Positions 6,016-62,623 of a stretch of DNA of 64,000 nucleotides are shown piece after piece. Origin of the DNA: an uncultured Eubacteriales bacterium. Its GTDB lineage: Bacteria; Bacillota; Clostridia; Christensenellales; Aristaeellaceae. Position numbers and translations under genes: made by a program. Position 1 is the first letter of the stretch. Each line of letters opens with the position of its first letter. Under the pieces are notes generated by a model. That model was not told the origin of the DNA, made no database searches, and saw only the letters and a program-made list of their open reading frames with translations. The stretch spans positions 20,580-84,579 of the forward strand of contig CACZXF010000043.1 in the NCBI GenBank assembly GCA_902785105.1, given 5' to 3'.

Positions 6016-6126
6016 ACTCCCTCAGTCAGCTTCGCTGACAGCTCCCTCTAAGAGGGAGCCATAAGGCGACCTTCCAAAAGGCTCCCTCTCTGAGGGAGCT
6101 ATCACGCGAAGCGTGACTGAGGGAGT
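6016..6126. repeat. Nested-palindrome element, family A (GAGGGAG type), copy A1
   Basis: Outer inverted repeat ACTCCCTCAGTCA/TGACTGAGGGAGT encloses sub-hairpins GTCAGCttcGCTGAC and GCTCCCTCTaaGAGGGAGC. Lies in the nrfA-ccsB spacer. Confidence 0.9.
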
Positions 6127-6149
6127 CCATCCCCCAACAAGGAACCACC

Positions 6150-7427
6150 ATGACGACATTCAAAAAGCTTTGGCGCTTCCTCTCCTCGATGAAGTTTGCC
6201 ATCATACTTCTGGTGATCCTGGCGGTGGCCTGTTCCCTGGCGAGCCTGGTGACCCAGGGTCAGGACTACGCTTGGTACGCCCAGCGCTATTCCGAGCGCA
6301 CGGCGGCGCTGATCCTGGCCCTGGGACTGGACGACGCCTTCCACAGCGTCTGGTTCATCGCCATCACCGCCTTCCTGTGCATCAATTTATTATTATGCAA
6401 CGTCCTGCGCCTGCCGGGCCTCATCAGGCGCACAAAGAGCGAGTCCGACCCCGCAAAGGTCCTCGACGCCGCCGGGGACATATCCGTCGAGAACGTCCGG
6501 GACCCCGAATCGGTATTCAAGCGCCTGGGCATGAAGCCCATCAAGGTGGAGGGCCGCGAAGCCTATTTTGCCGCGAAGCACCGCGCCGGCCTCTGGGGCG
6601 CGTGGGTCTGCCATCTGGGCATATTGCTGTTGATACTGGGCTTCGGACTGGGCCAGGCGACGCAGAAGCAATACGCGGTCTACGGCGTTCCGGGCACATC
6701 GAAACCCATCGGCGACACGGAATACGCGCTGACCATCGACGACTTCCGGGTGGGCCTGCGCGAGGACGACACCGTGGAGCAGTACACCGCCGACATCACC
6801 GTCCGCGACCTCTCCGAGAAGGGCATCGGCAGCAGCGAATCTGCCTCAATCAGCGTCAACCACCCCGCCACCCTCTACGGCATGAAGTTCTACCAGAACT
6901 CCACCGGCTGGGCGGCCACAGTCCACATCACCAAGGACGGCAAACCCCTCCAGGAGGAGGTCCTCTGCGCCGGGGAATACCTGCTGGTGAAGGACAAGCC
7001 CGAGCTGGCCATCTATCTGTCCGCCTTCTATCCGGACTATGTGATGACCCCCGGCGTCGGCCCCTCCACGGCCAGCGGCGCGCTGAACAACCCGGCCTAT
7101 CTGTATCAGGTCTACTATCAGGAGCAGGTGCTGGGCATGAACATACTGATGCCCGAGGAGGAGCTGACCATCGACGAGTACACCGTCACCTTCTCCGACC
7201 CGCAGAATTACACCCTCATCCAGATCAAGCGTGACCGCTTCACCCCGCTGGCCCTGGCCGGAGGCCTCATCACGCTGCTTGGCCTGATCCTGGCGCTGTA
7301 CCTCCAGCCCGCCCGCGTCTGGGCCATACGCACGGAAAATGGCTGGACCATCCGCGGCCAGTGCCGCAAGGGCGGCGCGCTGTTCCGGGAGCGGTTCATG
7401 AAGGCAATACAAACGGAAGAGGTATAA
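6150..7427 (+). CDS. resB: Cytochrome c biogenesis protein ResB/CcsB (system II)
   Basis: N-terminus MTTFKKLWRFLSSMKFAIILL, TM helices flanking a large extracytoplasmic loop, and a C-terminal TM. Located next to ccsA. Confidence 0.8.
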   Translation: MTTFKKLWRFLSSMKFAIILLVILAVACSLASLVTQGQDYAWYAQRYSERTAALILALGLDDAFHSVWFIAITAFLCINLLLCNVLRLPGLIRRTKSESDPAKVLDAAGDISVENVRDPESVFKRLGMKPIKVEGREAYFAAKHRAGLWGAWVCHLGILLLILGFGLGQATQKQYAVYGVPGTSKPIGDTEYALTIDDFRVGLREDDTVEQYTADITVRDLSEKGIGSSESASISVNHPATLYGMKFYQNSTGWAATVHITKDGKPLQEEVLCAGEYLLVKDKPELAIYLSAFYPDYVMTPGVGPSTASGALNNPAYLYQVYYQEQVLGMNILMPEEELTIDEYTVTFSDPQNYTLIQIKRDRFTPLALAGGLITLLGLILALYLQPARVWAIRTENGWTIRGQCRKGGALFRERFMKAIQTEEV

Positions 7428-7440
7428 ACAGGGAAAGACG

Positions 7441-7552
7441 ACTCCCTCAGTCAGCTTCGCTGACAGCTCCCTCTAAGAGGGAGCCTGAAAAGCGCCCCTC
7501 CAAAAGGCTCCCTCCCAGAGGGAGCTGGCACGCGAAGCGTGACTGAGGGAGT
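7441..7552. repeat. Family A element, copy A2
   Basis: Near-identical to A1. Lies in the ccsB-ccsA spacer. Confidence 0.9.
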
Positions 7553-7590
7553 CCGTACCCCCGGCATTGCACCATTGGAGGAAAATCCAC

Positions 7591-8406
7591 ATGCTACAGG
7601 TTGAGAACACGCTGTTCACCATCGTGATGCTGCTGTACTTCGCCGCGATGATCTGCTATTTCCTGTTCATCGCCGTGAAGAAGGATGGGATGGCAAAGAC
7701 CGCGATCATCCTTCAATCGGCGGGCCTGGTGCTGCACACGGCGGCGCTGGTCTGCCGGGGCATCGGCGCGGGGCGGCTGCCGCTGACGAACCAATATGAA
7801 TTTGCCACGGCCTTCGCCTGGGGCCTGTCGCTGGTGAGCCTGATCTTCGTGATAAGGTTCAAGTTTCCGGTGCTGGGGGCCTTCGCCGCGCCGGTGACGT
7901 TCCTGGTCATCGGCTATGCGGCCATGCAGAGCAAGGAGGTCAAGGAGCTGATGCCCGCCCTGCGGAGCAACTGGCTGGGCTTCCACGTCTCCACGGCCAT
8001 CATCGCCTACGGGGCCTTTGGCGTGTCCTTCGTGCTGGGCATCATCTTCCTGCTGCGCGACCGGATGCGGGCCAGCGGCTTCCTGGACAGCCACATCCCG
8101 GACAAGGAAAAGCTGGACATCATCAGCTATCGCAGCGTCTCCCTGGGCCTGCTGTTCCTGTCCTTCACCATCATCACCGGGGCCATCTGGGCCGAGCGGG
8201 CCTGGGGCAGCTACTGGTCCTGGGACCCCAAGGAGACCTGGTCGCTGGTCACCTGGATCATCTACGCCGCCTACCTCCACCTCCGCATCCGCCGGGGCTG
8301 GCAGGGCAAAGCCGCGGCCATATTCGCCGTGGCGGGCTTCATCTGCGTCATGTTCACCTACATCGGCGTGAACACGTTCCTGCCGGGCGTACACAGCTAC
8401 GCATAA
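7591..8406 (+). CDS. ccsA: Cytochrome c biogenesis protein CcsA/ResC (haem handling)
   Basis: ATG 9 nt after GGAGG. Polytopic, with the tryptophan-rich WGSYWSWDPKETWSL (WWD) motif. Confidence 0.85.
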   Translation: MLQVENTLFTIVMLLYFAAMICYFLFIAVKKDGMAKTAIILQSAGLVLHTAALVCRGIGAGRLPLTNQYEFATAFAWGLSLVSLIFVIRFKFPVLGAFAAPVTFLVIGYAAMQSKEVKELMPALRSNWLGFHVSTAIIAYGAFGVSFVLGIIFLLRDRMRASGFLDSHIPDKEKLDIISYRSVSLGLLFLSFTIITGAIWAERAWGSYWSWDPKETWSLVTWIIYAAYLHLRIRRGWQGKAAAIFAVAGFICVMFTYIGVNTFLPGVHSYA

Positions 8407-8492
8407 TGTCAATCATCGCCGGGATATATTCCCCGCGAATGACATAGAATCACACATTCCGACCCTACAAACCATTGAAGGAGGTCTTTCCC

Positions 8493-9461: not shown

Positions 9462-9497
9462 ATCCCCCTGCCTTTCAACCCCGGCAGGGGGATTTGT
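9462..9497 (+). terminator. Terminator after the kinase gene
   Basis: ATCCCCCTGCC-loop-GGCAGGGGGAT followed by TTGT. Confidence 0.6.
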
Positions 9498-9508
9498 CGT
9501 AGAAGGGG

Positions 9509-9631
9509 GACGAACCTCTCAGTCACCTTCGGTGACAGCTCCCCTTAAAAGGGGAGCCAGGACTGCCGCCGTTCCTCCTTGGCTCCCCTTTCAGGGGAGC
9601 TGGCACGCGAAGCGTGACTGAGAGGTTCGTC
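9509..9631. repeat. Family A variant element, copy A3
   Basis: GACGAACCTCTCAGTCAC ... GTGACTGAGAGGTTCGTC with inner hairpins GTCACCttcGGTGAC and GCTCCCCTTaaaAGGGGAGC. Confidence 0.85.
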
Positions 9632-9673
9632 CCCTTCCCCGGATGCTGACACATCACCAAAAAGAACGAATAG

Positions 9674-11796: not shown

Positions 11797-11877
11797 AGTT
11801 GGTTGCCTACTTTCTTTAAGTCTGCGCTTGTTGAAGCGTTGCGTTTGGTTCTGTGAATTGCCAGTCAAGGCGGAAAT

Positions 11878-11995
11878 CCACCTCATCCGGCGCTTCGCGC
11901 CACCTTCCCCTCAAGGGGAAGGCTTTTGGTTACCGGCAACCTAAGCCCCTGCCTTCCCCTTGAGGGGAAGGTGCCCGTGAGGGCGGATGAGGTGG
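11878..11995. repeat. Nested-palindrome element, family B (GGGGAAGG type), copy B1
   Basis: CCACCTCATCCG ... CGGATGAGGTGG encloses two CCTTCCCCTcaaGGGGAAGG hairpins. Lies inside the rpsG-fusA spacer. Confidence 0.9.
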
Positions 11996-12101
11996 CCTGC
12001 CGCTGACCTTTGGCATTTTATTTTAACACTGTCCCTTTACATACTTCAGCACGCAAACCTGAAAGTTGCGTGCTGAAGAAGAAGGTGTGATGTTTTTGTT
12101 T

Positions 12102-12756: not shown

Positions 12757-13131
12757 TTACTTCTTCGGACGCTTCGCGCCGTAGAGGGAGCGGCCCTGCA
12801 TACGCTTGGCAACGCCAGCAGCGTCCAGAGCGCCACGGATGATGTGGTAACGCACGCCAGGGAGATCGCGCACCTTGCCGCCGCGGATGAGCACAACGGA
12901 GTGCTCCTGCAGGTTGTGGCCGATGCCGGGGATGTAGCACGTACCCTCGATGTTGTTGGTCAGACGGACACGCGCAATTTTACGCAAAGCGGAATTCGGC
13001 TTCTTGGGGGTCTGCGTCTTGACGGACATGCAGACGCCGCGCTTCTGCGGACAGGACTGCAGAATCGGGGAATTCGACTTGCTGGTTACCTTTTCTCTAC
13101 CCTTGTGGATCAACTGATTGATCGTCGGCAT
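12757..13131 (-). CDS. rpsL: 30S ribosomal protein S12
   Basis: MPTINQLI ... [15 protein letters not shown]; 124 aa. Confidence 0.95.
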
Positions 13132-13764: not shown

Positions 13765-13799
13765 ATAATAGCATTATCCATGAAAAGAGGATGGTAAAT

Positions 13800-15551
13800 A
13801 TGAAATCGAATGCGTTCAGGCGCTTGCTTTGCGGGGCGTTGGCCGCCGTGATGCTTATTCCCGCCGCGATGGCGGAGGGACTCAACTCCGACGATGTGAG
13901 CGGTGTCAATCCCTTCACCGGTGAATACGTGGCCCCCTCCGCGGCCCCGATGCTGGGTCAGGCCGCTGACACCACCGGCACAAATCCCTTCGGCGGCTCG
14001 GATCTTACCGGCAATAACACCCCGGTGACCGCGGACGACCTGTTCGGCGGCAACACCAGCTATGCCGTCGATCCCAACAGCGAACTTGCCGCCGTGGCCA
14101 ACGATCCCTTCGCCACCGGCACCGCCTCCGCAGTGACCAACGATCCCTTCGGCACGGGCTCGGCCGCTCCGGTGACCAACGATCCCTTTGGCACAGGCTC
14201 GGCCGCTCCGGTGACCAACGACCCCTTCGGAACCGGCACGGCAGCGGCCACGACCACCGATCCCATAGACACGGGAGCCGCGACAGCCACCGATCCCTTT
14301 GGCACGGGCACAGCCGCGGCCAGCGACCCCTTTGGCACCGGCGCGGCGGCCACCGCCGCTCCCGCCGCGGCCACTGACAGCACGGCCAACGCCGGCAATC
14401 CCTTCGGCGACGTAGTCGTTCCCCAGGCCACGACCGCGCCTACGCAGATGCCCACGGTGAAGGGCTACAATCCCTTTGCCAGCAGCGGCGACACCTCGAA
14501 CATGACGGCGACGCAGCCGGGCACGGTGATGTACGTCAGCAACAGCATCGCCCGTCTGCGGGCCAAGCCCTCGGACGAGGCCAAGGTCATCACCGCAGTG
14601 TATTTCGGTACGCAGCTCAACGTCACCGCCACCCAGGACGAGTGGGCCCAGGTGACCAACCCCGCCAACAACCGGACGCTCTACTGCCTGCTGGAGGGCC
14701 TGAGCAGCACCGACCCCAACACCATGTCCAAGCTGATGTATGCCCAACTCCCCACCACGCCCATATCGAAGTCCCCCACCAAACGGGCGATTCGTATGCG
14801 CAACGTGAAGAAGGGCGACACCGTCACCATGACCGCCATCACCGACGACGGCATGTGGGCCCGGGTCACCGTGGACGGCACCAACTACGGCTTCGTCCCC
14901 ACCATCGACCTGGACGACGCCCCCGCCGCCGAGGGCACCCCGGTCTGGTGCGGCACCGCCTACACCGGCGTGATGGTCAACCCGGACCGCTGGACCAAGA
15001 TCGGCAACCTGTCCTTCGGCCAGCCCTGCTATCTGGTGAGCTATATCAACAACAACACCATCGCCAAGATACGCTCCGCCAAGGGCTATGTGGCCTATTG
15101 CGACGCCAGCGCGCTGATCACCGCCGACCCGGCCACACAGTCCACGCCGGTCTACGTCCAGATCACCGGCAAGGTGCTGGGCAAGGGTCCCGGCGAGGAG
15201 GCCGAGAACTTCTACAACGTCAAGAAGAACTCCCAGCTCATGCTGCTGGGCCTCGACAGCAGCGGCACCTGGGCGCTGGTGCGCCGCGGCAAGCAGAAGC
15301 TGTACATCCCCGCGCTGTTTATCGGGGCCACCCGGCTGGGCAACGAAAAGCGCAATCTGGTCGTCATACAGGATACGTCGCTCTACAGCAACAGCCTCCC
15401 TGGCTCCCCGTCCCTGGGCACGCTGCCCCTGGGCACCCGCGTGCAGCTCGTGGGCGGCACCAATACCCACGCCCAAGTCGCCACCATGTCCGACGGCTTC
15501 TCCGAGCCCGTCACCGGCTATGTGTCCTTTGAGTATCTGAGGGCGGAATGA
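13800..15551 (+). CDS. Secreted protein with DPFGTG tandem repeats and bacterial SH3-like domains
   Basis: Signal peptide MKSNAFRRLLCGALAAVMLIPAAMA. Repeats of the form VTNDPFGTGSAAP. Several modules of the type 'ARLRAKPSDEAKVI...W..V', consistent with SH3_3. Confidence 0.7.
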   Translation: MKSNAFRRLLCGALAAVMLIPAAMAEGLNSDDVSGVNPFTGEYVAPSAAPMLGQAADTTGTNPFGGSDLTGNNTPVTADDLFGGNTSYAVDPNSELAAVANDPFATGTASAVTNDPFGTGSAAPVTNDPFGTGSAAPVTNDPFGTGTAAATTTDPIDTGAATATDPFGTGTAAASDPFGTGAAATAAPAAATDSTANAGNPFGDVVVPQATTAPTQMPTVKGYNPFASSGDTSNMTATQPGTVMYVSNSIARLRAKPSDEAKVITAVYFGTQLNVTATQDEWAQVTNPANNRTLYCLLEGLSSTDPNTMSKLMYAQLPTTPISKSPTKRAIRMRNVKKGDTVTMTAITDDGMWARVTVDGTNYGFVPTIDLDDAPAAEGTPVWCGTAYTGVMVNPDRWTKIGNLSFGQPCYLVSYINNNTIAKIRSAKGYVAYCDASALITADPATQSTPVYVQITGKVLGKGPGEEAENFYNVKKNSQLMLLGLDSSGTWALVRRGKQKLYIPALFIGATRLGNEKRNLVVIQDTSLYSNSLPGSPSLGTLPLGTRVQLVGGTNTHAQVATMSDGFSEPVTGYVSFEYLRAE

Positions 15552-15607: not shown

Positions 15608-15787
15608 GTATAAATTGGAATTTGGCGGGGTGAGCGGGTAGGCCACCTCATCCGCTCCTTCGGGGCACCTTCCCCTCAAAGGGGAAGGCTTTTGGGCCCG
15701 CCGTTCCCAGCCCCTGCCTTCCCCTTGAGGAGCATCGAGCGCCCGGAAAACAGTCCAGTGGACTGTTTTCAGTGAGACCTGTTTATC
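15608..15787. repeat. Family B element with nested S module, copy B2 (inverted orientation)
   Basis: Terminal motif GTATAAATTGGAATTTGGCGGGG, core CCACCTCATCCGC..., and S palindrome GAAAACAGTCCAgTGGACTGTTTTC. Confidence 0.85.
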
Positions 15788-15818
15788 TATACTTACAACC
15801 ACACAAGAGGTGTTCCCC

Positions 15819-19107: not shown

Positions 19108-21057
19108 GTGAGCAAGAAACTGCCCACATGGGTTGCGGTCCCGGCGGTGTGCGTAGCTTCGGCACTGCTGGCGACGGGTGTGAACGGCGCGACCCACGAC
19201 CAGATCGACCGGCAGGCGGCGAAGCGTGAAAACGCGCCGCTGGCCGGGGTGATCGAGGCGGCTCAGTTTGAGCCGACAGAGCTGAAGGAGAGCCGCTACA
19301 GCGTGGAGAACGTCTACACGGCGCTGAACGACGCGGGCGAAAAGGTGGGCTACGTGGGCAAGACCACGGTGTCCGGCTACGGCGGGCCCATCGAGGTCAC
19401 CGCGGGCGTGGACAACGCGGGCGCGATCACCGGCGTGAACGTCGGCGGCGACACCTTCAACGAGACGCCCGGCCTGGGCGGGCTGACCCGCGAGCCGAGG
19501 TTCGCGAAGCAGTTCGTCGGCAAGGCGGCGGGCGTAGACCTCAACAGCGAGGAGAACACCGAGGGCGTGGACGGCATCGCCGGGGCCACCATCTCCTCCC
19601 GGGGCGTGCTGGGCGGCGTCAACAACATCGTCAGCTATGTCAGCGCCGCTGAGCTGGGCATCCTCCAGGAGAAGGAGGAGGTCTACATGGGGCCGACGGT
19701 CTCCGCCACGGAGAAGGGCTTCGCCGGGGACGTCACCGTCACCGCGGGGCTGGACGACGAGGGCGCCATCGTCTATCTGGACATCCAGACGCCCGACGAG
19801 ACCGAGGGCCTGGGCAAGCGCTGCTCCGAGCCTGAGTTCATCAATCAGTTCATCGGCAAGAAGGGACCCTTCGCCTACGGCGAGGACGGCGTCGAGGCCA
19901 TCTCCGGCGCGTCCTTCACCTCCACAGCCGTCATCAACGCGCTGAACACCATCGCCAATGGCGGTGGCACGGCCTCCGAGGGCCCGCTGTCCGCGACGGT
20001 GCAGGGCTTCGGCGGCGATGTGACCGTCAATGTCATGCTCAATCCCGATAACTCCATCGGCGCGCTGTCCATCGACACGCCCAATGAGACCGAGGGGCTG
20101 GGCAAGCGCACCTCCGAACCCGAGTTCACCGACCAGTTCATCGGCAAGCATGCCCCCTTCACCTATGGCGAGGACGGCATCGAGGCCGTGACCGGGGCCA
20201 CCGTGACCTCCACTGCCGTCATCAACGCGCTGAACGACCTCGTCCCCGCCGGTGAAGCCGCTCCCGCCTCCGCGGAAGCCGCCGCGCCCGCCGAGGAGGC
20301 CGCGCCCGCTGAGACTGAAGCGCCCGTGGAGGAAGCCGCGCCTGTTGAAGAGGCCGCGCCCGTCGCCGGGACGACTGTCGAGGACATGATGCGCGAGCGC
20401 CCGGTAGACTCCGCCCTGCAAAATGCCGCTGCTGCCGTGGCAGGGAACGTCGTCAAGGGCAGTCTGGACAGCATGATGCGCCAGCGCCCCGACGAGGCCG
20501 CGCTGGAAGCCGCTAAGGCCGAACCGGCGGCGGAAGAAGCGCCTGTCGAAGCGGTTGAGACTGACCCCAGCCGCCTAATGCGTCAGCGTCTCGCCGAGAG
20601 TGCCTTTATCAAGGCTGAACCGGCGGTTGAGGAAGAGACTGTCGTCGAGGCTGAACCGGTCGTTGAAGAAGATACCGAACCGGCGGCGGAAGAAGCGCCT
20701 GTAGCCGAAGCGGTTGAGACTGACCCCAGCCGCCTGATGCGTCAGCGTCCCGCCGAGAGTGCTTTTGTCAAGGCTGAACCGGCGGTCGAAGAAGAGACTG
20801 TCATTGAGGCTGAACCGACGGCGGAAGAAGAAGCCGTTGTCGAGGCTGAATCGGCGGCCGAGGAAGAAGCCGCTGCCGAGGCTGAACCGGAGGCCGAGGA
20901 AGTGCCCGTGGCCGAAGCGGCCCAGGGCGACGCCAGCCGTTTGATGCGGGAGCGTCCCGCGGCGCAGACTGCCATCGAAGCGGCGGAGGCCGAAGCGGAA
21001 GCGCCCAATATTGACAAGTATATGCGCCCCAGACCCGCGACTGTTGCGGGGGCGTAA
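19108..21057 (+). CDS. Membrane-anchored protein with three tandem FMN_bind (RnfG/NqrC-like) domains and a repetitive acidic C-terminal tail
   Basis: N-terminal anchor. Three domains each keep a flavinylation-type motif (IAGATISS, ISGASFTS, VTGATVTS). Domains 2 and 3 are close duplicates. The tail carries MR(Q/E)RP motifs. Confidence 0.8.
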   Translation: MSKKLPTWVAVPAVCVASALLATGVNGATHDQIDRQAAKRENAPLAGVIEAAQFEPTELKESRYSVENVYTALNDAGEKVGYVGKTTVSGYGGPIEVTAGVDNAGAITGVNVGGDTFNETPGLGGLTREPRFAKQFVGKAAGVDLNSEENTEGVDGIAGATISSRGVLGGVNNIVSYVSAAELGILQEKEEVYMGPTVSATEKGFAGDVTVTAGLDDEGAIVYLDIQTPDETEGLGKRCSEPEFINQFIGKKGPFAYGEDGVEAISGASFTSTAVINALNTIANGGGTASEGPLSATVQGFGGDVTVNVMLNPDNSIGALSIDTPNETEGLGKRTSEPEFTDQFIGKHAPFTYGEDGIEAVTGATVTSTAVINALNDLVPAGEAAPASAEAAAPAEEAAPAETEAPVEEAAPVEEAAPVAGTTVEDMMRERPVDSALQNAAAAVAGNVVKGSLDSMMRQRPDEAALEAAKAEPAAEEAPVEAVETDPSRLMRQRLAESAFIKAEPAVEEETVVEAEPVVEEDTEPAAEEAPVAEAVETDPSRLMRQRPAESAFVKAEPAVEEETVIEAEPTAEEEAVVEAESAAEEEAAAEAEPEAEEVPVAEAAQGDASRLMRERPAAQTAIEAAEAEAEAPNIDKYMRPRPATVAGA

Positions 21058-21102
21058 CCGTTGTAATAACCGATATATGATACAACACTGGAGGTGCTGA
21101 AA

Positions 21103-22452: not shown

Positions 22453-22458
22453 TCGGTC

Positions 22459-24561: not shown

Positions 24562-24986
24562 GGCGGATATTCGCGGCGGCGCTGGCAGTCCTGCTGCTGA
24601 CCGCCGCCGCTGTGGCCGAACCCACCGCTGAACCGTCCGTGGAGCCGTCCGCATCGCCAAAGCCCGCCAAGGGCTATGTGCTGGTGCAGACCGCCACGCA
24701 GCTGGGCTGGCTCCCCCTCCCCGAGGAGGGCGAGCAGTCCGTCCCCATCAAGCAGATCCTCCCCGACGGGACCGAGGCGGAAAACATCGTCCATCTCACC
24801 CCCGAGGGCGTCTGGATGGAGGACTCCACCTGCGAAAACCACGATTGCGTCAATCAGGGCGAGGTCACGCTGGACAACAAGGCCGACAGGATACTCGGCA
24901 ACATGATCATCTGCCTCCCCAATCAGGTCATGCTGGCACTGTATACCCCGGAGGAAGTGCTGAAGCTGATGAAGGAGGAGCAATAG
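24558..24986 (+). CDS. NusG-domain-II-like secreted protein (paralogue 2)
   Basis: ATGA overlap with the rnfA stop. Has a signal peptide. CENHDCVNQGEVTLDN ... IICLPNQV parallels the 16911 protein. Confidence 0.7.
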   Translation: MRRIFAAALAVLLLTAAAVAEPTAEPSVEPSASPKPAKGYVLVQTATQLGWLPLPEEGEQSVPIKQILPDGTEAENIVHLTPEGVWMEDSTCENHDCVNQGEVTLDNKADRILGNMIICLPNQVMLALYTPEEVLKLMKEEQ

Positions 24987-26433: not shown

Positions 26434-26701
26434 AATCCGTACCTCTCATGCCAAAAGCCATATAATCCGTAATACTTTTGAAATGATTATAGCATGAACT
26501 GAAATGAGTGTCAATGGATTATTCATTGAAAGCCGTGTAAATATGCAAAATTAACCCATTTACACTGCATATAATGATGAAATTGCGCATAAATAATTAC
26601 AAAAATATGACATCCAGGATTGTGACGAAATCCCGAAACCGTGCGCGGCGGGATTGAAATGGGGGGAAATTGATGGTATTCTGTAGGGGTAAAGGTTCTT
26701 T

Positions 26702-26916
26702 GATAAATGGGGTTTTATCGGGGTGACGTTCGAAAACCACCTCATCCGCCCTCACGGGCACTTGACAAGGGCCTGCCGGCCCCATCTCACTGAAAACAGT
26801 CCACTGGACTGTTTTCCGGGCGCTCGATGCTCCTAAAGCCTTCCCCTTGAGGGGAAGGTGCCCCGAAGGGGCGGATGAGGTGAACCCCCGTCTCCCCGAC
26901 AACTTCCACTTTATCC
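26702..26916. repeat. Family B element with S module, copy B3
   Basis: Left terminus GATAAATGGGGTTTTATCGGGG and right terminus CCCCGACAACTTCCACTTTATCC, with the core and S palindrome between them. Confidence 0.9.
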
Positions 26917-29170: not shown

Positions 29171-29185
29171 ACAGCATACGACCCG

Positions 29186-29237: not shown

Positions 29238-29435
29238 CGATAAACAGGGATTTATCGGGATGTCATTCGAAACCCACCTCATCCGCCCTCACGGGCACTT
29301 GACAAGGGCCTGCCGGCCCCATCTCACTGAAAACAGTCCACTGGACTGTTTTCCGGGCGCTCGATGCTCGGGAAGGTGCCCCGAAGGGGCGGATGAGGTG
29401 GATTCCCGCTCACCTCTGCAAATTCCAATTTGTCG
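29238..29435. repeat. Family B element with S module, copy B4 (complete, with both termini)
   Basis: CGATAAACAGGGATTTATCGGG ... core ... CTGCAAATTCCAATTTGTCG. Confidence 0.9.
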
Positions 29436-31040: not shown

Positions 31041-31044
31041 GCAA

Positions 31045-31296
31045 GATAAACAGGGATTTGTCGGGGTGACATTCAAGTCCACCTCATCCGCCCTCACGGG
31101 CACCTGACAAGGGCCTGCCGGCCCCATCTCACTGAAAACAGTCCACTGGACTGTTTTCCGGGCGCTCGATGCTCCTCAAGGGGAAGGCAAGGAGCTGGGA
31201 ACAATGGGACCCAAAAGCCTTCCCCTTGAGGGGAAGGTGGCGCAAAGCGCCGGATGAGGTGGATTACCCGCTGTCCCCGACAAATTCCGATTCATC
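31045..31296. repeat. Family B element with S module, copy B5
   Basis: GATAAACAGGGATTTGTCGGGG ... CCCCGACAAATTCCGATTCATC. Confidence 0.9.
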
Positions 31297-31356
31297 TCAG
31301 TTATATGTTTCAAACCCACATACATGGTTGAAATATAGCCAGGGGGGATTCGATCT

Positions 31357-31823: not shown

Positions 31824-32011
31824 CGATAAACGGGGATTTGTCAGGACGTTTGTTCGAGGCCACCTCATCCGCCCTCACGGGCACCTTCCCCTCAAGGGGA
31901 AGGCAAGGGGGTAAGAACGGCAGTCCCAAAAGCCTTCCCCTTGAGGGGAAGGTGGCGCGAAGCGCCGGATGAGGTGGGTTCCCCGTTTCCCAAACAGATT
32001 CCAATTTGCCG
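31824..32011. repeat. Family B element, copy B6
   Basis: CGATAAACGGGGATTTGTCAGG ... CAGATTCCAATTTGCCG. Confidence 0.9.
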
Positions 32012-38817: not shown

Positions 38818-38848
38818 GGGCGGGCGGCGAAACGCCGCCCCTACAGGG
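38818..38848. repeat. Family C half-element, copy C5
   Basis: GGGCGGGCGGCGAAACGCCGCCCCTACAGG only. Confidence 0.8.
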
Positions 38849-40618: not shown

Positions 40619-40714
40619 AGTCAATTGCTCCTTCCCAATAAAACAGTGTGGAGTGCGGCGCGACGGGGCACCGCACTCGGATATACATGGTTTGTAGAAT
40701 GTGTAGGGGAGATG

Positions 40715-40827
40715 GACTCCCTCCGACCCGCTTCGCGGGCCACCTCCCTCTGAGAGGGAGGCTTTTGGAGTGCGCCCTTTAGGCTCCCTCTCAGAGGGAG
40801 CTGTCAGCGAAGCTGACTGAGGGAGTC
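40715..40827. repeat. Family A element, copy A4 (inverted orientation, one arm degenerate)
   Basis: Ends GCTGTCAGCGAAGCTGACTGAGGGAGTC. Confidence 0.85.
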
Positions 40828-40857
40828 GTCTCCCATAAGCGAATAGCTGTTAGTTGC

Positions 40858-44039: not shown

Positions 44040-44065
44040 TGTAAATACCTCCAATGTTTTGTTGT

Positions 44066-44151
44066 GAATGGGGAATGGGAAATGGGGAATGGTGAATGAA
44101 TGGCAACAGCGGGTAACTTAATTCCCCATTCCCCATTCCCAATTCCCCATT
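44066..44151. repeat. Inverted GGGGAATGGG-type element, family D, copy D1
   Basis: TGAATGGGGAATGGGAAATGGGGAATGG ... CCCCATTCCCCATTCCCAATTCCCCATT. Overlaps the GH32 stop codon by 2 nt. Confidence 0.85.
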
Positions 44152-45613
44152 AAACAATAAAGTCGTCCGTCACTGCATCCTTCAGTTTCCACATGTGGAT
44201 GGCGGCGTCGCCGTCGAAGGAACAGCCGGTCTCCTCTGCGGTGGGGAAGGCGCGGGTGGTGAATACGGCGTCGCCGTCGTTGACGAAGATCTCCACGGAG
44301 CTGCGGTCGATGTAGACGCGCATGTGGTGGAAGCCCTTGGGCAGCGGGCGGGTGCGGGCTTCGCCCTGATCGGTGTTGAAGCGGCGGGCCATGCCGGAGC
44401 GGTCCACGGTCAGCTCCCGCCTTTCGTCGTCATAGCGGATGGAGAGGCCGCCGCTGCCGTCCTGTTTCGTGAACAGCTTCAGCTCCATGTCGCCTCCGCG
44501 GCTGATGAGCTCCAGCTCGGCCACCCTTGGCATCTTGCCGGGTTTGAAGGGGATCTCGCCGTCGCGGAGCTGTTTTAAGCCGCTCAGGGGCTGCTGGATG
44601 AGGCGGCGGTTGCGGATGGTCAGCTCCCTCGGGAGGGTCAGCGCGCCTTGCCAGTCCTCCTCGTCGGTGGGGTATTCGGCGTCGGGCAGGCCCATCCAGG
44701 CGACGATCACCGCGTGGTCGGGGTCGTCGATGTTGGTGGTGCAGGCGGCAGCGTAGCTGTCAAAGCCGAAGTCCAATACGTGGAAGCCGCCCTCCGGGGT
44801 GAAGGTCAGGTTCTCATAGTCCATCGTGCCAATAATGTAGCCGTTGTGGTGCTGTGTGCCGCCGCGGCCCGGCAATGTCAGGTGCTGGGGGCAGAATATC
44901 AGCACGTCCCGGCCGGAGATGTGCTCGATGGAGGGACATTCCCACATGTCCCCGAAGTCCTCGAAGCCGGGAACCTTGATCTCACCGGCGAAGCGCCAGC
45001 CGCTGTCCAGGGACTCGGATTCAAACATGATGACCCGGCCCTGTTTTTTGTCGTTCTGCGCGCCAAGCATGATGTAATATTTGCCGGTCTTTTCGTCGTA
45101 CTCCACCTTGGGGTCCCGCTGGTGCTCGGTGTAGCCGGGGGCGGGGCCGAACAGGGGCACGTCGTACTTCTTCACGCCGCCGTCGTCCATCAGCTCCGCC
45201 AGACAGGTGTAGGGCGTGCGGACCCAGTTTTCGTCCCGGTGGTTGCCGGTATAGAAGAGGTAGATGCCGTCATCCGCCACCAGCGCGGAGCCGGAATAGG
45301 CGCCCTTGTTGTCGTAGTATGTGTCGGGCTTCAGGCACACGCCCAGATTGCGCCAGGTGATCAGGTCGTCCGACGCCACGTGGTACCAGTACTTCAACCC
45401 GTGGACCGCGCCCCAGGGGCACCACTGATAGAACAGCCGCCAGCGCCCGTCGCGATGGCGCAGGAAGCCGTTGGGGTCGTTGAGCAGGCCCGTCACCGGC
45501 TGGATGTGGTAGCGCAGCCGGTAGTCCGAGGCCGAAATCCTCTCGTGCAGCGAACGTATCTCCTCCGGGTCCCTCAATACCCGGTAGCGTTCCTCCTTCG
45601 TCCATTTGCGCAA
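44150..45613 (-). CDS. GH32 sucrose-6-phosphate hydrolase
   Basis: TTG start after AAGGGGGG. NDPNG motif (LLNDPNGFL), RDPKV and ECP boxes. Confidence 0.85.
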   Translation of the reverse strand: MRKWTKEERYRVLRDPEEIRSLHERISASDYRLRYHIQPVTGLLNDPNGFLRHRDGRWRLFYQWCPWGAVHGLKYWYHVASDDLITWRNLGVCLKPDTYYDNKGAYSGSALVADDGIYLFYTGNHRDENWVRTPYTCLAELMDDGGVKKYDVPLFGPAPGYTEHQRDPKVEYDEKTGKYYIMLGAQNDKKQGRVIMFESESLDSGWRFAGEIKVPGFEDFGDMWECPSIEHISGRDVLIFCPQHLTLPGRGGTQHHNGYIIGTMDYENLTFTPEGGFHVLDFGFDSYAAACTTNIDDPDHAVIVAWMGLPDAEYPTDEEDWQGALTLPRELTIRNRRLIQQPLSGLKQLRDGEIPFKPGKMPRVAELELISRGGDMELKLFTKQDGSGGLSIRYDDERRELTVDRSGMARRFNTDQGEARTRPLPKGFHHMRVYIDRSSVEIFVNDGDAVFTTRAFPTAEETGCSFDGDAAIHMWKLKDAVTDDFIV

Positions 45614-46010: not shown

Positions 46011-46039
46011 AGACCCGTCCTGAGAGGGACGAATGACAA

Positions 46040-46215
46040 CTGCACAAGACATGAGGTGCGCCGGGGAACCGGCGAGAATAGGGAAACAGGTGCGAAGCCT
46101 GTGCGAACTCGTCACTGTATGGGAGGAGCCGCCGCGAAGAAAGCCACTGGCGAAAGCCGGGAAGGCCGCGGGCGGGCGATGAGCCCCGAGCCAGGAGACC
46201 TGCCTCATGCCGGTA
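46040..46215 (+). promoter_or_regulatory. Cobalamin (B12) riboswitch
   Basis: P1 pairs CATGAGG with CCTCATG. Contains GGTGCGCCGGGGAA, GCGAGAATAGGGAA, the B12 box GCCACTGG and AGCCAGGAGACCTGCC. Lies 155 nt upstream of the 46371 start. Confidence 0.85.
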
Positions 46216-46370
46216 CGGACGACGTCCGAAGATCACGAGCAATTGATCGTACCGTCGGCAGGCATAATTTGTCTGCCCCGTTCTCTTGCGCGTGCGCGGG
46301 AGATTTTCTTTTGCGCCGGGATGAACTCCGTACTATGTGCCATCCGCACAACAACGAGGAGGAGAACATC

Positions 46371-48381: not shown

Positions 48382-48408
48382 CGCTGTTCTTGACTGTTCA
48401 GTGTTATT

Positions 48409-48642
48409 GATAAACAGGGATTTGTCGGGATGTCATTCGAAACCCACCTCATCCGCCCTCACGGGCACCTTCCCCTCAAGGGGAAGGCAAGGGGTTAAGA
48501 ACGGTGGCCCCAAAAGCCTTCCCCTTGAGGGGAAGGTGCCCCAAGAACGGTGGCCCCAAAAGCCTTCCCCTTGAGGGGAAGGTGCCCCGAAGGGGCGGAT
48601 GAGGTGGCTTACCCGCTCTCCCCGACAAATTCCAATTTATCG
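48409..48642. repeat. Family B element, copy B7, with an internal duplication
   Basis: Carries both termini. AAGAACGGTGGCCCCAAAAGCCTTCCCCTTGAGGGGAAGGTGCCCC occurs twice. Confidence 0.9.
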
Positions 48643-50131: not shown

Positions 50132-50168
50132 ACATCGTTATGATGGGATGTAACTGTTTGATGCTGTT

Positions 50169-50224
50169 CATAAACCGGGGGATTTATCTGAGAGGCGTAA
50201 CTCTGACAACTTCCAATTTATCGG
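50169..50224. repeat. Empty-shell copy of the element termini (no core)
   Basis: CATAAACCGGGGGATTTATCTGAG-aggcgtaact-CTGACAACTTCCAATTTATCGG. Confidence 0.75.
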
Positions 50225-50304
50225 TTCAGATCGAAAAGTTCCCTGTTCCCTTGCAAATCCCCGCCGATTGCGCTATAATCGCAGGCAGAGAAGGGGTGCG
50301 CGAT

Positions 50305-51204
50305 ATGAAGAAATGGCTGATATGGATACTGACGGCGGCGGTGGCGCTGAGCCTGGCGGCGGCGCTGGCCGAGGATTATCATGTGAACGAAAAAAACGGC
50401 GACAATTTCGCCGCGCTGCTGGTATACCTGGCGAGGGCTTACGAGCAGCCCTCCCTGGAGACGGCGCAGGCCGTAGAGAGCTGGCTTACGACCATACGGG
50501 AGACAGACGCCCGTGACGGCGAGGTGGCTGATGCCATCGTCGAACACTGGCAAGCGGTCTACATCGACCCGGATTATCCGCTCTATATGCACGACGGTGG
50601 CGAGCGGGCCGAAGCGCTGGAGGCGCTGGGCCTTCCGGACGAGTCCGCCCACGCGCTGGTGGTGCTGGGCTATGAGCTGAAAAACGGCGAGATGACCGCC
50701 GAACTGAAGGGCCGCTGCGACGCGGCGGCAGCGGCGGCGCGTTCCCTGCCGAATGCCATCCTCGTCTGCTCCGGCGGCGCCACCGGCGACAACAATCCGA
50801 AGGGGCATACCGAGGCGGGCATGATGCGGGACTATCTGGTGAACCGTTGCGGCATCGACGCTTCCCGCATATTCATCGACGAGCGCGCCATGACCACGAC
50901 CCAGAACGCCATCAACACCTTCGCCATGCTGATGGACCGGGGCATCCGCACCTATACCATCGTCACGTCCTCCTATCATCAGCGCTGGGGTCAGGCCGTC
51001 TACAACGCCATGGCCGCCGTCTGTCGCCAGCGCTATGGCTACGAGGCGCAGATCGTCGGCAACTACTGCTACGACACCGCCCCCTCCAGCGAGCACTACC
51101 GCCAGGATGACCGCATCGCCGCCACCCAGATCGCCGCCGTGCTGGAGCTACCCCGCGATTCCATCGATAAAATGCGGAGCGTATTTGACAGAAACAAGGG
51201 TTGA
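50305..51204 (+). CDS. Secreted YdcF/DUF218-family protein
   Basis: Has a signal peptide. LVVLGYEL ... ILVCSGGATG ... TEAGMMRDYL ... IFIDERAMTTTQNA ... TIVTSSYHQRW. The track start at 50140 is rejected. Confidence 0.7.
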   Translation: MKKWLIWILTAAVALSLAAALAEDYHVNEKNGDNFAALLVYLARAYEQPSLETAQAVESWLTTIRETDARDGEVADAIVEHWQAVYIDPDYPLYMHDGGERAEALEALGLPDESAHALVVLGYELKNGEMTAELKGRCDAAAAAARSLPNAILVCSGGATGDNNPKGHTEAGMMRDYLVNRCGIDASRIFIDERAMTTTQNAINTFAMLMDRGIRTYTIVTSSYHQRWGQAVYNAMAAVCRQRYGYEAQIVGNYCYDTAPSSEHYRQDDRIAATQIAAVLELPRDSIDKMRSVFDRNKG

Positions 51205-51211: not shown

Positions 51212-51565
51212 CGATAAACAGGGATTTGTGGGGTGCCCCCACGGGCAATTGCTACCGCGCATAGGCACCGGTCTTTGGGGGCCATAGATCCGAGCCCCCA
51301 AAGACCTACGTTGCGTTTCTTTTAATTCCACGTTCGAAGCGACGACTTTTTGCCCCATAGATCCGAGGGCAAAAAGTCTGCGTTGTAAGATTACTGCGCA
51401 GTTTTTGAGGTCGTGCTTTTTGGCCTCAAAAACGTTGCCTGCCGCTAACGCAATATAGGAACGTATCGAAGGTTCTGGGGGGCTCGGACCTATGGTCCCC
51501 CAGAACCGGTGCCTCTCCGCGGAGCTATGGGGTGCGGGCACAGCCCGCCAAATTCCAATTTGTAG
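51212..51565. repeat. Long composite element, family E (four hairpins inside the shared termini)
   Basis: CGATAAACAGGGATTTGTGGGG ... hairpins at 51271-51306, 51344-51378, 51401-51432 and 51471-51507 ... CGCCAAATTCCAATTTGTAG. Confidence 0.85.
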
Positions 51566-52721: not shown

Positions 52722-52923
52722 GGCAAATTGGAATTTGCTTTGGTTTTGAATGGGGAATTGGGAATGGGAAATGGGGAATGGATGTGGAAATCCTTCGGAT
52801 TTCTTTTTATTAAAGATCATCGTAATTCCGAGTGTTTTCCCCATAATCAAACAAATCCGTAGGATTTGTACCTTCATTCCCCATTCCCCATTCCCCATTC
52901 AAAGCGACAAATCCCCGTTTCTC
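52722..52923. repeat. Family D element, copy D2, with shared termini
   Basis: GGCAAATTGGAATTTGC ... GGGGAATTGGGAATGGGAAATGGGGAATGG ... CATTCCCCATTCCCCATTCCCCATTC ... GCGACAAATCCCCGTTTCTC. Confidence 0.85.
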
Positions 52924-52966
52924 TCCACAAACAAAGGAGCCGCGTATCAGCAGCTCCTTTGTTTTG

Positions 52967-57644: not shown

Positions 57645-57675
57645 GAGCGGGCGGCGAAACGCCGCCCCTACAGGG
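57645..57675. repeat. Family C half-element, copy C10
   Basis: GAGCGGGCGGCGAAACGCCGCCCCTACAGGG. Confidence 0.8.
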
Positions 57676-59508: not shown

Positions 59509-59550
59509 GGAAGGGCTCCTTTCTGGGGTGGCAGTTGATTATGCAAAGTT

Positions 59551-59710
59551 TTGGCGGGAAACCACCTCATCCGCCCTCACGGGCACCTTTCCCTCAAGGG
59601 AAAGGCGAGAGTTGGAAGCGACGGGTTCCAAAAGCCTTCCCCTTGAGGGGAAGGTGCCCCGAAGGGGCGGATGAGGTGGATTTCCGCCAACCTCGATTAA
59701 TTCCAATTTC
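59551..59710. repeat. Family B element, copy B8
   Basis: Core CCACCTCATCCGCC ... GGCGGATGAGGTGG. Lies between the SBP gene and the permease genes. Confidence 0.9.
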
Positions 59711-59785
59711 CCATTCTCTCATCAGACTAAAGGCGGGGAAGGCGAGTGCTTCGCCTTCCCCGCCGGTGGAATCGGTGATGTCAGA

Positions 59786-61103: not shown

Positions 61104-61132
61104 ATTATAGCGTTATAAGGTGGATTTGTCAA
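61104..61132 (-). promoter_or_regulatory. Consensus sigma-A promoter of the ABC/heparinase-like operon
   Basis: On the minus strand: TTGACA, 17 nt, TATAAT. Confidence 0.65.
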
Positions 61133-61193
61133 TAGTTTCCGTAAAATATTTCAGTATATTTCGCAATTTATGAAAATTTTGATGTAATTTTCA

Positions 61194-61222
61194 TTGTAAT
61201 TTTCAATCAGGTGTGGTATACT
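61194..61222 (+). promoter_or_regulatory. Promoter for the LacI-family gene
   Basis: TTGTAA, 17 nt, TGgTATACT (extended -10). Element C11 would lie in the 5' UTR. Confidence 0.5.
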
Positions 61223-61237
61223 GGTGGGGAATTGGCA

Positions 61238-61389
61238 GGCAAATTGGAAGTTGTCGAGCAGTCAAACCAACCATGTAGAGGCGCCGTTTCGGCGCCTGCC
61301 CCCAACGAAACGCATCGTACTACCCGGCGGGCGGCGCAACGCCGCCCCTACAGGAAAGCGGGCAACTCCCCGACAAATCCCCGTTTATC
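61238..61389. repeat. Family C element, copy C11
   Basis: GGCAAATTGGAAGTTGTCGAG ... core ... CCCCGACAAATCCCCGTTTATC. Confidence 0.9.
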
Positions 61390-61426
61390 TGCATACTCAA
61401 ACTAACTCATCCGGGAGGCGCGAGCG

Positions 61427-62473
61427 ATGGAGCAGAAGACCGTAACGATCAACGACGTGGCGAAGGCGGCGGAGGTCTCCGTGGCTACGGTTTCGCGGGT
61501 GCTTTCCGGGGGCGGGGCCAGCGCGGCGGCCCGTGAGCGGGTGGAGGAAGCGGCGCAGCGTCTGGGCTACCGCAAGACCACTACAGAAAAGAAGGGCGAG
61601 ACGTCGCCGACACGGGCGCTGGCGCTGGTGCTGTCGGACATGACGAACCCCTATTATTCCCAGCTCTGCGCCGGTGCGGAACAGGCGGCGCGGCAGGCGG
61701 GCTGGCCGCTGATGGTCTATCAGGCGGAGCTGGGCCGCCGGGGGGAAGACACCATCGCCGACGACGTGCTGGAGCTGGGCGTCTCCGGGGCGGTGCTGGT
61801 GGGAACGCCCGTGGAGGCCGGCACGGCGGAGGACATCCGTCGGCGGCTGAACCGCATTGCCCAGAGAATGCCCATCGTCACCATCGGCCCCCGGGTGGAG
61901 GGGGTGAGCTGCGTCAACATCACCTCCGACCTGTCCGTCAGCGTGCGCAAGTCCGTCGCCCATCTGGCGGCGCTGGGGCATAAGCGCATCGCGTTCATCG
62001 GCGGCTCCGGGGGCCTGCGCTCCCCCAGCGCCCGGCGTCGGGCCTGGTTTGAGGAGATGGAGCGGCTGGGTCTGCCCACCGACATGCGGCTCTCCCCCGA
62101 ATCCGCCCACACGCCCCAGGGCGGCGAGCTGTGCGTGAACCGGCTGTTCAGCGAGGCGAAGGAGGGAGAGCGCCCCACCGCCATCATCGCCATCAACGAC
62201 CTGGTTGCCCTGGGCGCGCTCAGGCAGCTCCAGCGCATGGGCCTCAAAGTGCCCGAAGACGTGGCCCTCATCGGCTGCGACAACCAGTTCTTCACCCCCT
62301 ATCTCAACCCGCCGCTGACCACCGTGGACCTCCACCCCTTTGACCACGGCGCTTCCGCCATTGACGAGCTCATCGCCAGCCTCAACGGCTCCCGCGCCGC
62401 CTATTCCCAGATCCGTGAATGCAGCCTCATCGTCCGCGAAAGCTGCGGCGCGCTTCTGGGAGTGAGGGGGTGA
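61427..62473 (+). CDS. LacI-family transcriptional regulator
   Basis: N-terminal HTH (TINDVAKAAEVSVATVSRVL) plus a periplasmic-binding-fold sensor domain. Confidence 0.9.
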   Translation: MEQKTVTINDVAKAAEVSVATVSRVLSGGGASAAARERVEEAAQRLGYRKTTTEKKGETSPTRALALVLSDMTNPYYSQLCAGAEQAARQAGWPLMVYQAELGRRGEDTIADDVLELGVSGAVLVGTPVEAGTAEDIRRRLNRIAQRMPIVTIGPRVEGVSCVNITSDLSVSVRKSVAHLAALGHKRIAFIGGSGGLRSPSARRRAWFEEMERLGLPTDMRLSPESAHTPQGGELCVNRLFSEAKEGERPTAIIAINDLVALGALRQLQRMGLKVPEDVALIGCDNQFFTPYLNPPLTTVDLHPFDHGASAIDELIASLNGSRAAYSQIRECSLIVRESCGALLGVRG

Positions 62474-62623
62474 CAAGTTGGAAGTTGTCGAGGAGTCTAA
62501 CCAGCCCTGTAGGGGCGCCGTTTCGGCGCCCGCTTTGTACGAAGCACACCATCCTACCCGGCGGGCGGCGCAACGCCGCCCCTACAGGAGAGTGTGCATC
62601 TCCCCTACAAAATCCCTGTTATG
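62472..62623. repeat. Family C element, copy C12
   Basis: Same orientation as C11. Its left terminus overlaps the regulator's stop codon. Confidence 0.9.

Follow-up and report, generated by a model that had tools for sequence, protein, structure and literature searches.

The closest described relatives of the repeats reported here are the repetitive extragenic palindromes (REPs) headed by GTAG, together with their REPINs (REP doublets forming hairpins) and REPtrons (Nunvar 2010, PMC2817692; Di Nocera 2013, PMC3733652; Corneloup 2021, PMC8266576). The group-3 REPtron REP of S. maltophilia consists of GTAG and a perfect 8-bp palindrome with a 3-nt loop, with cleavage at CT (PMC8266576). Among GTAG families the inverted dimer with outward-facing heads predominates, REP dimers inside longer palindromes are on record from Anabaena variabilis and Halothiobacillus neapolitanus, and the 2013 survey of GTAG REPs includes Proteobacteria, Cyanobacteria, Chloroflexi and the PVC group only, with no Firmicutes (PMC3733652). 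We analysed 64,000 nt, hereafter the window, of an uncultured rumen bacterium of the Eubacteriales (GCA_902785105.1, contig CACZXF010000043.1, positions 20,580-84,579 of the forward strand; 62% GC), in which nested palindromic elements of several families, designated A to F, lie between the genes. One of them, family C, is a GTAG-headed REP arranged in REPIN-like inverted dimers, and every test for a GTAG REP at the level of sequence had a positive outcome.

Family C shares with the described GTAG REPs the 23-nt GTAG format, sub-families related by complementary stem changes, a dense and strictly extragenic distribution, and inverted dimers 20-100 bp apart with GTAG outward. The differences are that the host is a metagenome-assembled genome (MAG) of Clostridia (Firmicutes), that no cognate REP-associated tyrosine transposase (RAYT) was found in ~750 kb, and that density and nesting with at least five other module families exceed the described cases. 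GTAG REP and REPIN systems were reportedly also treated by Bertels and Rainey in 2011.

Mosaics of the BIME (bacterial interspersed mosaic element) and RIME/SMAG types are likewise intergenic palindromic units with alternating orientation and conserved linkers, tolerated in operons and variable between strains (PMC2817692, PMC3733652). However, these mosaics are serial, whereas the modules described here are concentric, with palindrome inside palindrome around one centre. Unlike in BIMEs, the inner REPs are surrounded by AT-rich hairpins of a different kind, to which they bear no relation (the shell hairpin S, heptamer arrays and a second shell type). Miniature inverted-repeat transposable elements (MITEs) and palindrome-associated transposable elements (PATEs), the latter derived from IS200/IS605 insertion sequences, resemble the elements in size (56-350 bp), lack of coding capacity and terminal inverted similarity, and PATEs also in having hairpins at both ends and no target-site duplication (reviewed by Delihas, PMC3184786). 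In contrast to both, the elements here have no parent insertion sequence that we could find, their termini are older than the interior, and they also occur as a plain hairpin without cargo. IS1397, ISKpn1 and members of the IS110/IS1111 family insert into REP palindromes. They provide a precedent for mobile DNA entering the apex or body of an existing extragenic palindrome, although they are full insertion sequences with a transposase, whereas the incoming DNA here is a non-coding palindrome.

The system is a dense, layered form of REP/BIME selfish intergenic repeats and not a new class. What is new is the host phylum, the double-hairpin units of families A and B with their hypervariable palindrome, the concentric architecture with a reusable shell, and the density. 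No prior description was found in the literature on REP, RAYT and palindromic repeats in Clostridia or Ruminococcaceae, and the sequence strings were unmatched there; with no Rfam match, and no Firmicutes in the main survey of GTAG REPs, this agrees with the preliminary description of the stretch, which knew of no report of the family. The elements probably constitute a BIME-like mosaic, made up of several independent REP-type palindromic module families and a lineage-restricted S hairpin.

Number, placement and anatomy of the elements

Self-BLAST and motif mapping within the window yielded 28 palindromic elements, namely four A, eight B, twelve C, two D, one E and one core-less shell, as the preliminary description had counted by eye. 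The C copies comprise ten inverted dimers and two single arms (38819 and 57646). Against a chance control of dinucleotide-preserving shuffles, in which every motif had zero matches, the window contains 11 sites of the left and eight of the right shell motif, three of the A half motif and, at up to three mismatches, four of the B half motif and 20 of the C arm motif, all 20 with GTAG. In total, 22 C arms are present in the 64 kb and every one is intergenic. The elements sum to 4,245 bp, which corresponds to 6.6% of the window or 46% of the bases between its genes, at a density of one per 2.3 kb. Our gene map has 34 spacers of 60 bp or more, and elements occupy 27 of them. All fold into long nested hairpins, with z-scores from -5 to -14 relative to shuffles.

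No coding region in the window is interrupted. Two contacts with stop codons, at 44150 and 62472, are overlaps of 8 nt (D1 with a GH32 gene) and 3 nt (C10 with a LacI-family gene, 62471-62473), while the core-less shell falls within the longest version of the open reading frame (ORF) 50140-51204, whose true start is probably downstream of it. Elements are placed within evident operons (nrfA-A1-resB-A2-ccsA and rpsG-B1-fusA), and B5 and one single C arm (Ch2) are located in an ABC-transporter cluster. Recurring peptides of spurious ORFs, such as RRNAAPTG, map to element positions. On these points the earlier account was borne out. Three more C arms, at two or three further elements, occur within 7 kb past the right-hand end of the window. 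On the contig that covers this region (L132) the element density persists, with inverted (CATAATK)n arrays in a shell (12762-12902), an S-C-S element (13830-14000) and a further C arm (15700).

The C arm has the form CT-GTAG-GGGCGGCG-TTK-CGCCGCCC-GCC, a 23-nt unit in which unpaired GTAG heads an 8-bp stem closed by a 3-nt loop; CT stands immediately before GTAG on its 5' side. In the ten dimers the arms are inverted, GTAG faces outward and the spacers vary around 25-27 nt. Two arm subtypes, GCGGCG/CGCCGC and GCGCCG/CGGCGC, are related by a compensatory swap. Covariation was tested on 39 distinct variants from the window and 93 loci of other genomes, with GTAGGGG...CCC held fixed and the inner five pairs tested; since the alignment was preselected on GTAG, it lends no independent support to the conservation of that motif. 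Of the stem cells, 95.8% are paired. Changes on both sides were counted in 37 cells as against 7.9 in shuffles, none of 500 shuffles reached the observed value, and double changes are spread over five of the eight pairs. Controls with a slid register gave 0.04-0.11 compared with 0.379. By analogy with GTAG REPs, family C would have the substrate format of RAYT (TnpA-REP) enzymes.

Maintenance of stems by compensatory changes would also be expected of functional RNA or DNA signals under site-wise selection (mRNA stabilisers, attenuators, terminators or nucleoid-protein sites), whose similarity would reflect function. E. coli REPs stabilise upstream mRNA. Furthermore, asymmetric elements point with transcription in 10 of 12 co-directional gene pairs (p = 0.039), several elements abut stop codons, and C5 has a T7 run on the transcribed strand. 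We nevertheless consider such an origin very unlikely. A terminator scan found no excess over shuffles, and ordinary terminators lie beside the elements, not within them; close relatives have orthologous spacers without elements or with unrelated modules; and G-T and A-C mismatches in the C stems (10 versus 6) show no significant strand preference. In Rfam searches of the window, only a cobalamin riboswitch and one tRNA exceeded the threshold and no element matched, even at E <= 1, while sub-threshold hits were generic miRNA-type hairpins. A role of the elements at the RNA level is possible but secondary.

The elements were also considered as intrinsic terminators and rejected as such, C5 alone having a T7 tail. 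One terminator-like hairpin (29185-29225, followed by a T run) stands directly after a MIP-family gene with BE2 a few bases downstream, and another (24987-25024) directly after the last gene of the second Rnf cluster, with C1 beginning alongside or downstream. Because BE2 and C1 adjoin ordinary terminators, the elements do not replace them.

The outermost layer of many elements is the shell, S, a separate AT-rich hairpin of ~56 bp. The preliminary description had noted imperfect 22-bp terminal inverted repeats framing families B, C, D and E. These termini exist and match at 19 of 22 positions, but they are the two arms of this one hairpin, and D1, C3 and C5 have no S-type shell. The arms pair mutually over ~23 bp and each can also fold on itself (CGAYAAA-N6-TTTRTCG). 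Empty shells are present in the window (50168-50223) and on a metagenome contig (L112, 170-232). Fifteen elements are bounded by shell termini. The interiors enclosed by the shell are of six or more kinds, namely B, B/F, C, D arrays, E and, just beyond the window, (CATAATK)n arrays. Shells are eroded around C1, C6, B1 and B5. Just upstream of A3 (~9486-9503) there is a half shell (GGGGGATTTGTCG), and the A3 subtype also adjoins a left shell arm in locus L105.

The order of parts within the shell depends on the core. With SL and SR for the left and right arms, B-type elements read SL / X - B core / Y - SR and C-type elements SL - Y / C core - reverse-complement X / SR, where X is a ~14-nt leader resembling ATGTCATTCGAAACC and Y (TTRCCCGCTCT) is the shell's own loop segment. 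The GC-rich modules occupy the apical part of S, at the stem-loop junction, and X plus core is invariably found directly 3' of ...TTTRTCGGG. This motif belongs to the 5' arm of the shell stem, and either strand may be the one concerned. The shared leader suggests the same entry chemistry for B and C.

Other outer layers were found as well. In the related species represented by L096, D-type arrays frame B cores and a second shell type (GGGCTGTCTCAAAACGCAT...) frames C cores; the latter is eroded around C3 of the window. Another organism has an element with (GGGAGTA)n arrays lodged in the loop of the hairpin formed by the right shell arm, and AAATCC borders it at either end. It belongs to a high-copy composite of ~265 bp (L104 1204-1470, L108 4794-5060 and L111 1830-2115, from Joint Genome Institute (JGI) set Ga0256405 and related data), in which an element with inverted (GGGAGTA)n arrays splits the right arm of an S-type hairpin (loop, CTTTG); the flanking AAATCC could be a 6-bp duplication. 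The composite is itself nested in a further outer inverted repeat (TACCATTCAG...CTGAATGGTA).

Family B is an inverted dimer of a ~45-nt unit with a tail CCACCTCATCC and two hairpins. Hairpin 2 is CCTTCCCC-TCAA-GGGGAAGG, whereas hairpin 1 occurs in 32 distinct versions of 12-23 nt, with end-to-end pairing of 87.6% as against 38.7% in shuffles. Family A, likewise an inverted dimer of a ~45-nt unit, is laid out in the same way: the tail ACTCCCTCAGTC is followed by a short hairpin of variable sequence, looped by TTCG or GAAG, and then by GCTCCCTC-TAAG-GAGGGAGC. Module F (GAAAACAGTCCACTGGACTGTTTTC and its flanks) is contained within four of the B copies. In some other genomes, B half-units and C arms appear both singly and in tandem. 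Altogether, the recurrent modules S, X, Y, A, B, C, D, F and E are combined in differing ways, concentrically and not serially.

Family D consists of two (GGGGAAT)n arrays in inverted orientation, which in D1 enclose a central reverse complement of Y. In D1 and L096 the heptamer arrays begin directly at the TAA stop of the upstream gene. The G-rich halves of the (GGGGAAT)n and (GGGAGTA)n arrays have at least four runs of at least three G with short loops, which constitutes a G-quadruplex motif (44061-44100, 52750-52785, L096 12448-12480 and L103-L111); a G-quadruplex of these arrays would compete with the hairpin. Element E contains three hairpins, one of them reversed, that share an 11-nt loop CATAG(A/G)TCCGA on wholly unlike stems (GGTCTTTGGGGGC, GACTTTTTGCCC and GGTTCTGGGGGAC). 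A conserved loop on swapped stems suggests recognition of the loop by a protein or an RNA. No match to E was found in any other locus examined.

Relative age of shells and interiors

The two clearest recent pairs of elements differ mostly at their ends. BE1 and BE2 are identical in the interior (0/96 differences) and differ at 7 of 35 shell positions (p = 6e-5), and the corresponding counts for C4 and C7 are 1/110 and 6/44 (p = 0.002). Copying of whole composites would be expected to give uniform divergence, contrary to both pairs. In locus L117, which is 98.6% identical over neighbouring genes, the flanks and both outer shell termini are identical to those of window element 29238-29435, whereas the content is Y-C core-reverse-complement X instead of X-B/F core-Y. 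Since interiors are younger than shells and the core is swapped in L117, it appears that modules move into hairpins already in place, or displace one another there, and that the shell is not their carrier. We favour with moderate confidence the explanation in which the shell is an older, lineage-restricted landing pad and the interiors are the part that spreads and is exchanged.

Orthologous spacers of relatives differ widely, as the preliminary description had anticipated. At the site of the S-C-S element C4 (37455-37608), one shell arm is kept in L113 and L114, next to heptamer arrays. The spacer downstream of floA is 63 bp without an element in L096, compared with a 254-bp element (BE3) in the window, while C3 is common to the window and L115, with indels. 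A series of states is seen in the rpsG-fusA spacer of ten contigs with an identical S7 protein (rpsG DNA 94-97% identical). Five contigs have 123 bp with only a small hairpin, CCGCC-GCAAAT-GGCGG; one has 182 bp with a shell-like right arm and one has 222 bp; the window's lineage has 350 bp with B1; and two contigs have 408 bp with a cluster of different GTAG REPs. The extra DNA lies at one constant spot, and for three of the five alleles there is more than one independent assembly. This five-state spacer of the str operon and the swapped cores of near-identical strains provide a natural series for studying REP spread and nesting.

The 285-bp REP cluster of the longest allele (L123 and L125; L123 1760-2060) is flanked by a 9-bp direct repeat, ACGACGCAG. 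Its GTAG REPs are of different stem types (GGGACGCCA..., GGGCGATG... and GGGCGCCA...). Locus L133 (98.9% identical) is uninformative on the elements because all of its differences fall in a coding tract.

The preliminary description preferred to see in the S-bounded composites a non-autonomous, mobile MITE-like shell with captured cores. Put in full, this reading would make them transposons of MITE or PATE type, whose shell termini are recognised by a transposase that moves shell and cargo together, with the cores as passengers. Several features are of the kind expected: shell termini enclose 15 elements with at least six kinds of interior, the similarity of C4 and C7 begins and ends at the shell ends, and each terminus is a small hairpin that, like the ends of IS200/IS605-derived PATEs, is not accompanied by target-site duplication. 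T is enriched at position -1 of the left end (9/15, p = 0.004; no clear tetranucleotide), which might be a target preference, and founder composites would easily explain a coupling of core type to shell orientation. However, the longest direct repeat in the flanks is 2-4 nt in 14 of 15 shell copies, equal to that of random 10-mers, and this absence of duplication excludes a DDE-type MITE. Recent pairs are far more alike in interiors than in termini, the same shell holds a different interior at the same site of a close strain (L117), empty shells exist, B and C occur without shells elsewhere, and the metagenome scan revealed no autonomous element with these ends. A composite transposon is therefore unlikely, and the mobile-shell reading is not favoured. 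The alternative offered alongside it, of REP/BIME-like modules that target one another, is the better fit to the evidence.

It may also be asked whether any dedicated enzyme is needed, as slippage, fold-back (template-switch) synthesis and gene conversion, with shells as short homology, could build composites through host processes. The 46-bp tandem duplication in B4 (48514-48605), consisting of hairpin 2 and spacer, is missing from two assemblies of other samples that are otherwise identical (L130 and L131); the interiors of BE1, BE2 and BE3 differ by clean deletions; the identical tracts of C4/C7 and BE1/BE2 resemble conversion tracts that end within the shell; and the segment exchanged in L117 takes in a few bases of the shell's inner stem. 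Fold-back synthesis would also directly yield the 32 near-perfect palindromes of differing length at hairpin 1 of family B. Conversion between shells and slippage clearly contribute to turnover. As a complete account, host processes seem improbable to us. Conversion cannot seed new spacers, yet orthologous spacers range from a bare hairpin with a 5-bp stem to 285 bp of REPs; B and C units extend across many genera; diverged homology arms of 17-22 bp are short for RecA-dependent exchange; and an invariant unpaired GTAG beside a covarying stem points to recognition by a protein.

Distribution and the mobilising enzyme

Beyond the window, over 85 stretches of sequence match the C pattern, most of them belonging to Clostridia MAGs of rumen and gut, and B hairpins occur alongside. 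This extends GTAG-type REPs to the Firmicutes and makes them widespread in uncultured rumen MAGs. The shell has a much narrower range, with zero hits to its pattern in the same C-bearing stretches and only 10 hits in JGI metagenomes. No autonomous element with shell ends was detected among these 10 hits; the one candidate (L110), in which unique DNA follows the hit, proved to match by chance, within a gene of an organism with 45% GC. The preliminary description had named beforehand, as grounds for giving up the family, its confinement to this region, a lack of boundaries at the proposed termini and a lack of polymorphism among strains, and none of these was observed.

The repeats also affect the assemblies in which they are found. 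Window proteins recur identically on NCBI, ENA and Logan contigs of rumen metagenomes (exact-protein look-up), and contigs of the same strain start, end or diverge inside elements (L094 at 1-76, and the ends of L095 and L131). The repeats thus fragment short-read assemblies of the organism. They also seed recurrent spurious ORFs, and at nearly half of the intergenic DNA they have consequences for strain typing, for gene calling and for the quality of MAGs in data on the rumen microbiome.

No enzyme that could move the modules was recovered. The ~57 predicted proteins of the window have no match to transposase or integrase Pfam families, which confirms the earlier statement that the window lacks a transposase. 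A search of all ORFs of the window and related loci (~750 kb) for an HUH...Y motif gave a single spurious hit, phmmer with E. coli YafM and Salmonella IS200 TnpA as queries returned nothing from 5,985 ORFs, and neither tnpA nor tnpB was seen. Three further candidates were dismissed. Two small unannotated genes flanked by elements (31357-31818 and 32038-32604) do not have transposase-like sequences, and a phage-type tyrosine recombinase on L132 (18195-19172) is weakly Xer-like (45 bits, cut-off 220), with nothing linking it to the elements.

The substrates of HUH enzymes are folded single strands, and the target is not duplicated by their action. A possible mechanism for the mosaic would have the modules move as folded single-stranded DNA, mobilised in trans by a RAYT (TnpA-REP) or IS200/IS605-type enzyme of the HUH/Y1 class, the gene for which would lie elsewhere in the genome. 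Hairpin loops that are single-stranded at the replication fork could serve as preferred entry points, and nesting at stem-loop junctions would follow. Recombination or conversion between shells and slippage would also reshuffle the interiors, and inserted elements would probably be co-transcribed in the form of stable hairpins, whose effects on mRNA, if any, would be secondary.

A more specific version would make the S shell a reusable docking site, in which a putative enzyme acting on single-stranded DNA inserts or swaps palindromic modules, strand-specifically, 3' of ...TTTRTCGGG. We put this forward as a tentative proposal and regard it as rather doubtful. If true, it would amount to a cassette-like exchange of non-coding DNA that builds concentric palindromes, distinct both from classical REP/RAYT dissemination and from MITE transposition.

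Several observations weigh against the favoured explanation and its mechanism. A and B are devoid of a GTAG head. The core type is coupled to the strand in 17 of 17 cases (including L109 and L117), with B on the strand that carries Y and C on the opposite one; targeting of a symmetric stem does not predict this, and two founder composites or gene conversion could account for it. Only one of 23 C dimers of other genomes is nested in outer inverted repeats (score >= 12), so that apex targeting is not a general property of the module. The L117 allele is a single 1.2-kb metagenome contig, for which a repeat-induced chimeric assembly is possible. Neither the window nor ~750 kb of related loci yielded a RAYT, an IS200 or any other transposase, so that the mobilising enzyme is hypothetical. 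Finally, the published RAYT groups associated with REPINs (2 and 3) have been described in Proteobacteria, and reports for Clostridia concern the more IS-like group 1 alone (PMC5581495).

Individual elements and neighbouring features

The positions, orientation and composition of the elements are listed in the table.

Table. Palindromic elements of the window, with positions counted from its first nucleotide; z, folding z-score against shuffles.
Element	Position	Strand	Description
A1	6010..6133		inverted dimer of the double-hairpin A unit, nrfA/resB gap; z = -11.6
A2	7437..7556		A dimer, resB/ccsA gap; z = -11.1
A3	9505..9634		divergent A dimer, ACCTCTCAGTCACC subtype; z = -14.4
B1	11858..12012	-	B dimer (core 11877-11996), eroded outer inverted repeat; rpsG-fusA spacer, str operon
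B2	15608..15792	-	minus-orientation shell with half B core and module F
C1	25022..25180	-	GTAG-REP inverted dimer (core 25055-25135), degenerate shell
BE1	26701..26916	+	order: shell, leader X, left B arm, module F, right B arm, loop segment Y
BE2	29238..29435	+	shell with B/F core; orthologous L117 shell has C core
BE3	31044..31297	+	shell with B/F core, downstream of floA
B3	31824..32011	+	shell, X, complete B dimer, Y; z = -10.5
C2	32608..32764	-	C dimer in minus-orientation shell
C3	37066..37148		C dimer without S shell; flanks resemble second shell type (GGGCTGTCT..AAAA / ATGCGTTTT)
C4	37455..37608	+	shell, Y, C dimer, reverse-complement X
C half copy	38819..38846	-	single GTAG-REP arm
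A4	40712..40833		A dimer, other first hairpin (GACCCGC-TTCG-GCGGGCC); z = -7.0
C5	42946..43027	-	C dimer without shell; seven-T run after it on the transcribed (minus) strand
C6	43078..43205	+	C dimer, degenerate shell
D1	44057..44157		inverted (GGGGAAT)n array pair, no shell, abuts GH32 stop; z = -5.0
C7	45770..45923	+	shell with C dimer; near-twin of C4 in the interior only; upstream of cobalamin riboswitch
C8	47361..47516	-	C dimer in minus-orientation shell
B4	48408..48642	+	shell with B dimer and 46-bp internal tandem duplication
Empty shell	50168..50223	+	core-less: CATAAACCGGGGGATTTATCTGAGAG-GCGTAA-CTCTGACAACTTCCAATTTATCG
E	51212..51565	+	shell with ~310-nt compound palindrome; z = -10.2
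D2	52727..52924	-	minus-orientation shell, (GGGGAAT)n inverted arrays around central hairpin
C half copy	57646..57673	-	single GTAG-REP arm, minus-strand transporter/glycosidase cluster
B5	59540..59712	+	B dimer, eroded shell, between two ABC-transporter genes; z = -12.0
C9	61237..61390	-	C dimer in minus-orientation shell
C10	62471..62623	-	C dimer in minus-orientation shell; overlaps TGA stop of LacI-family gene

The gene content of the window includes two Rnf clusters, nrfA-resB-ccsA, the str operon, floA, transporters of the phosphotransferase system (PTS) and ABC types, and cbiK. The two Rnf-type clusters share one stretch of 25 kb (1-3647 and 19108-24986). The second opens with a 649-aa protein of three FMN_bind domains and a long acidic tail, which is encoded by tandem repeats of 159 bp and 36 bp (20519-20902). 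Between the first cluster and nrfA lie the genes for a ParE-family toxin (4053-4370) and, after it, a DUF2442 protein (4387-4641), and the 405-bp spacer upstream of the toxin gene (3648-4052) is among the few large spacers that have no element. In-frame tandem repeats of 39 nt and 33 nt are also found in the gene for a 586-aa SH3-domain protein (13791-15551) at 14094-14354, coding for ...TNDPFGTGSAAP... The cobalamin riboswitch (111 bits, 46037-46221) precedes cbiK (46233-47297), with C7 immediately 5' of it in the divergent spacer.

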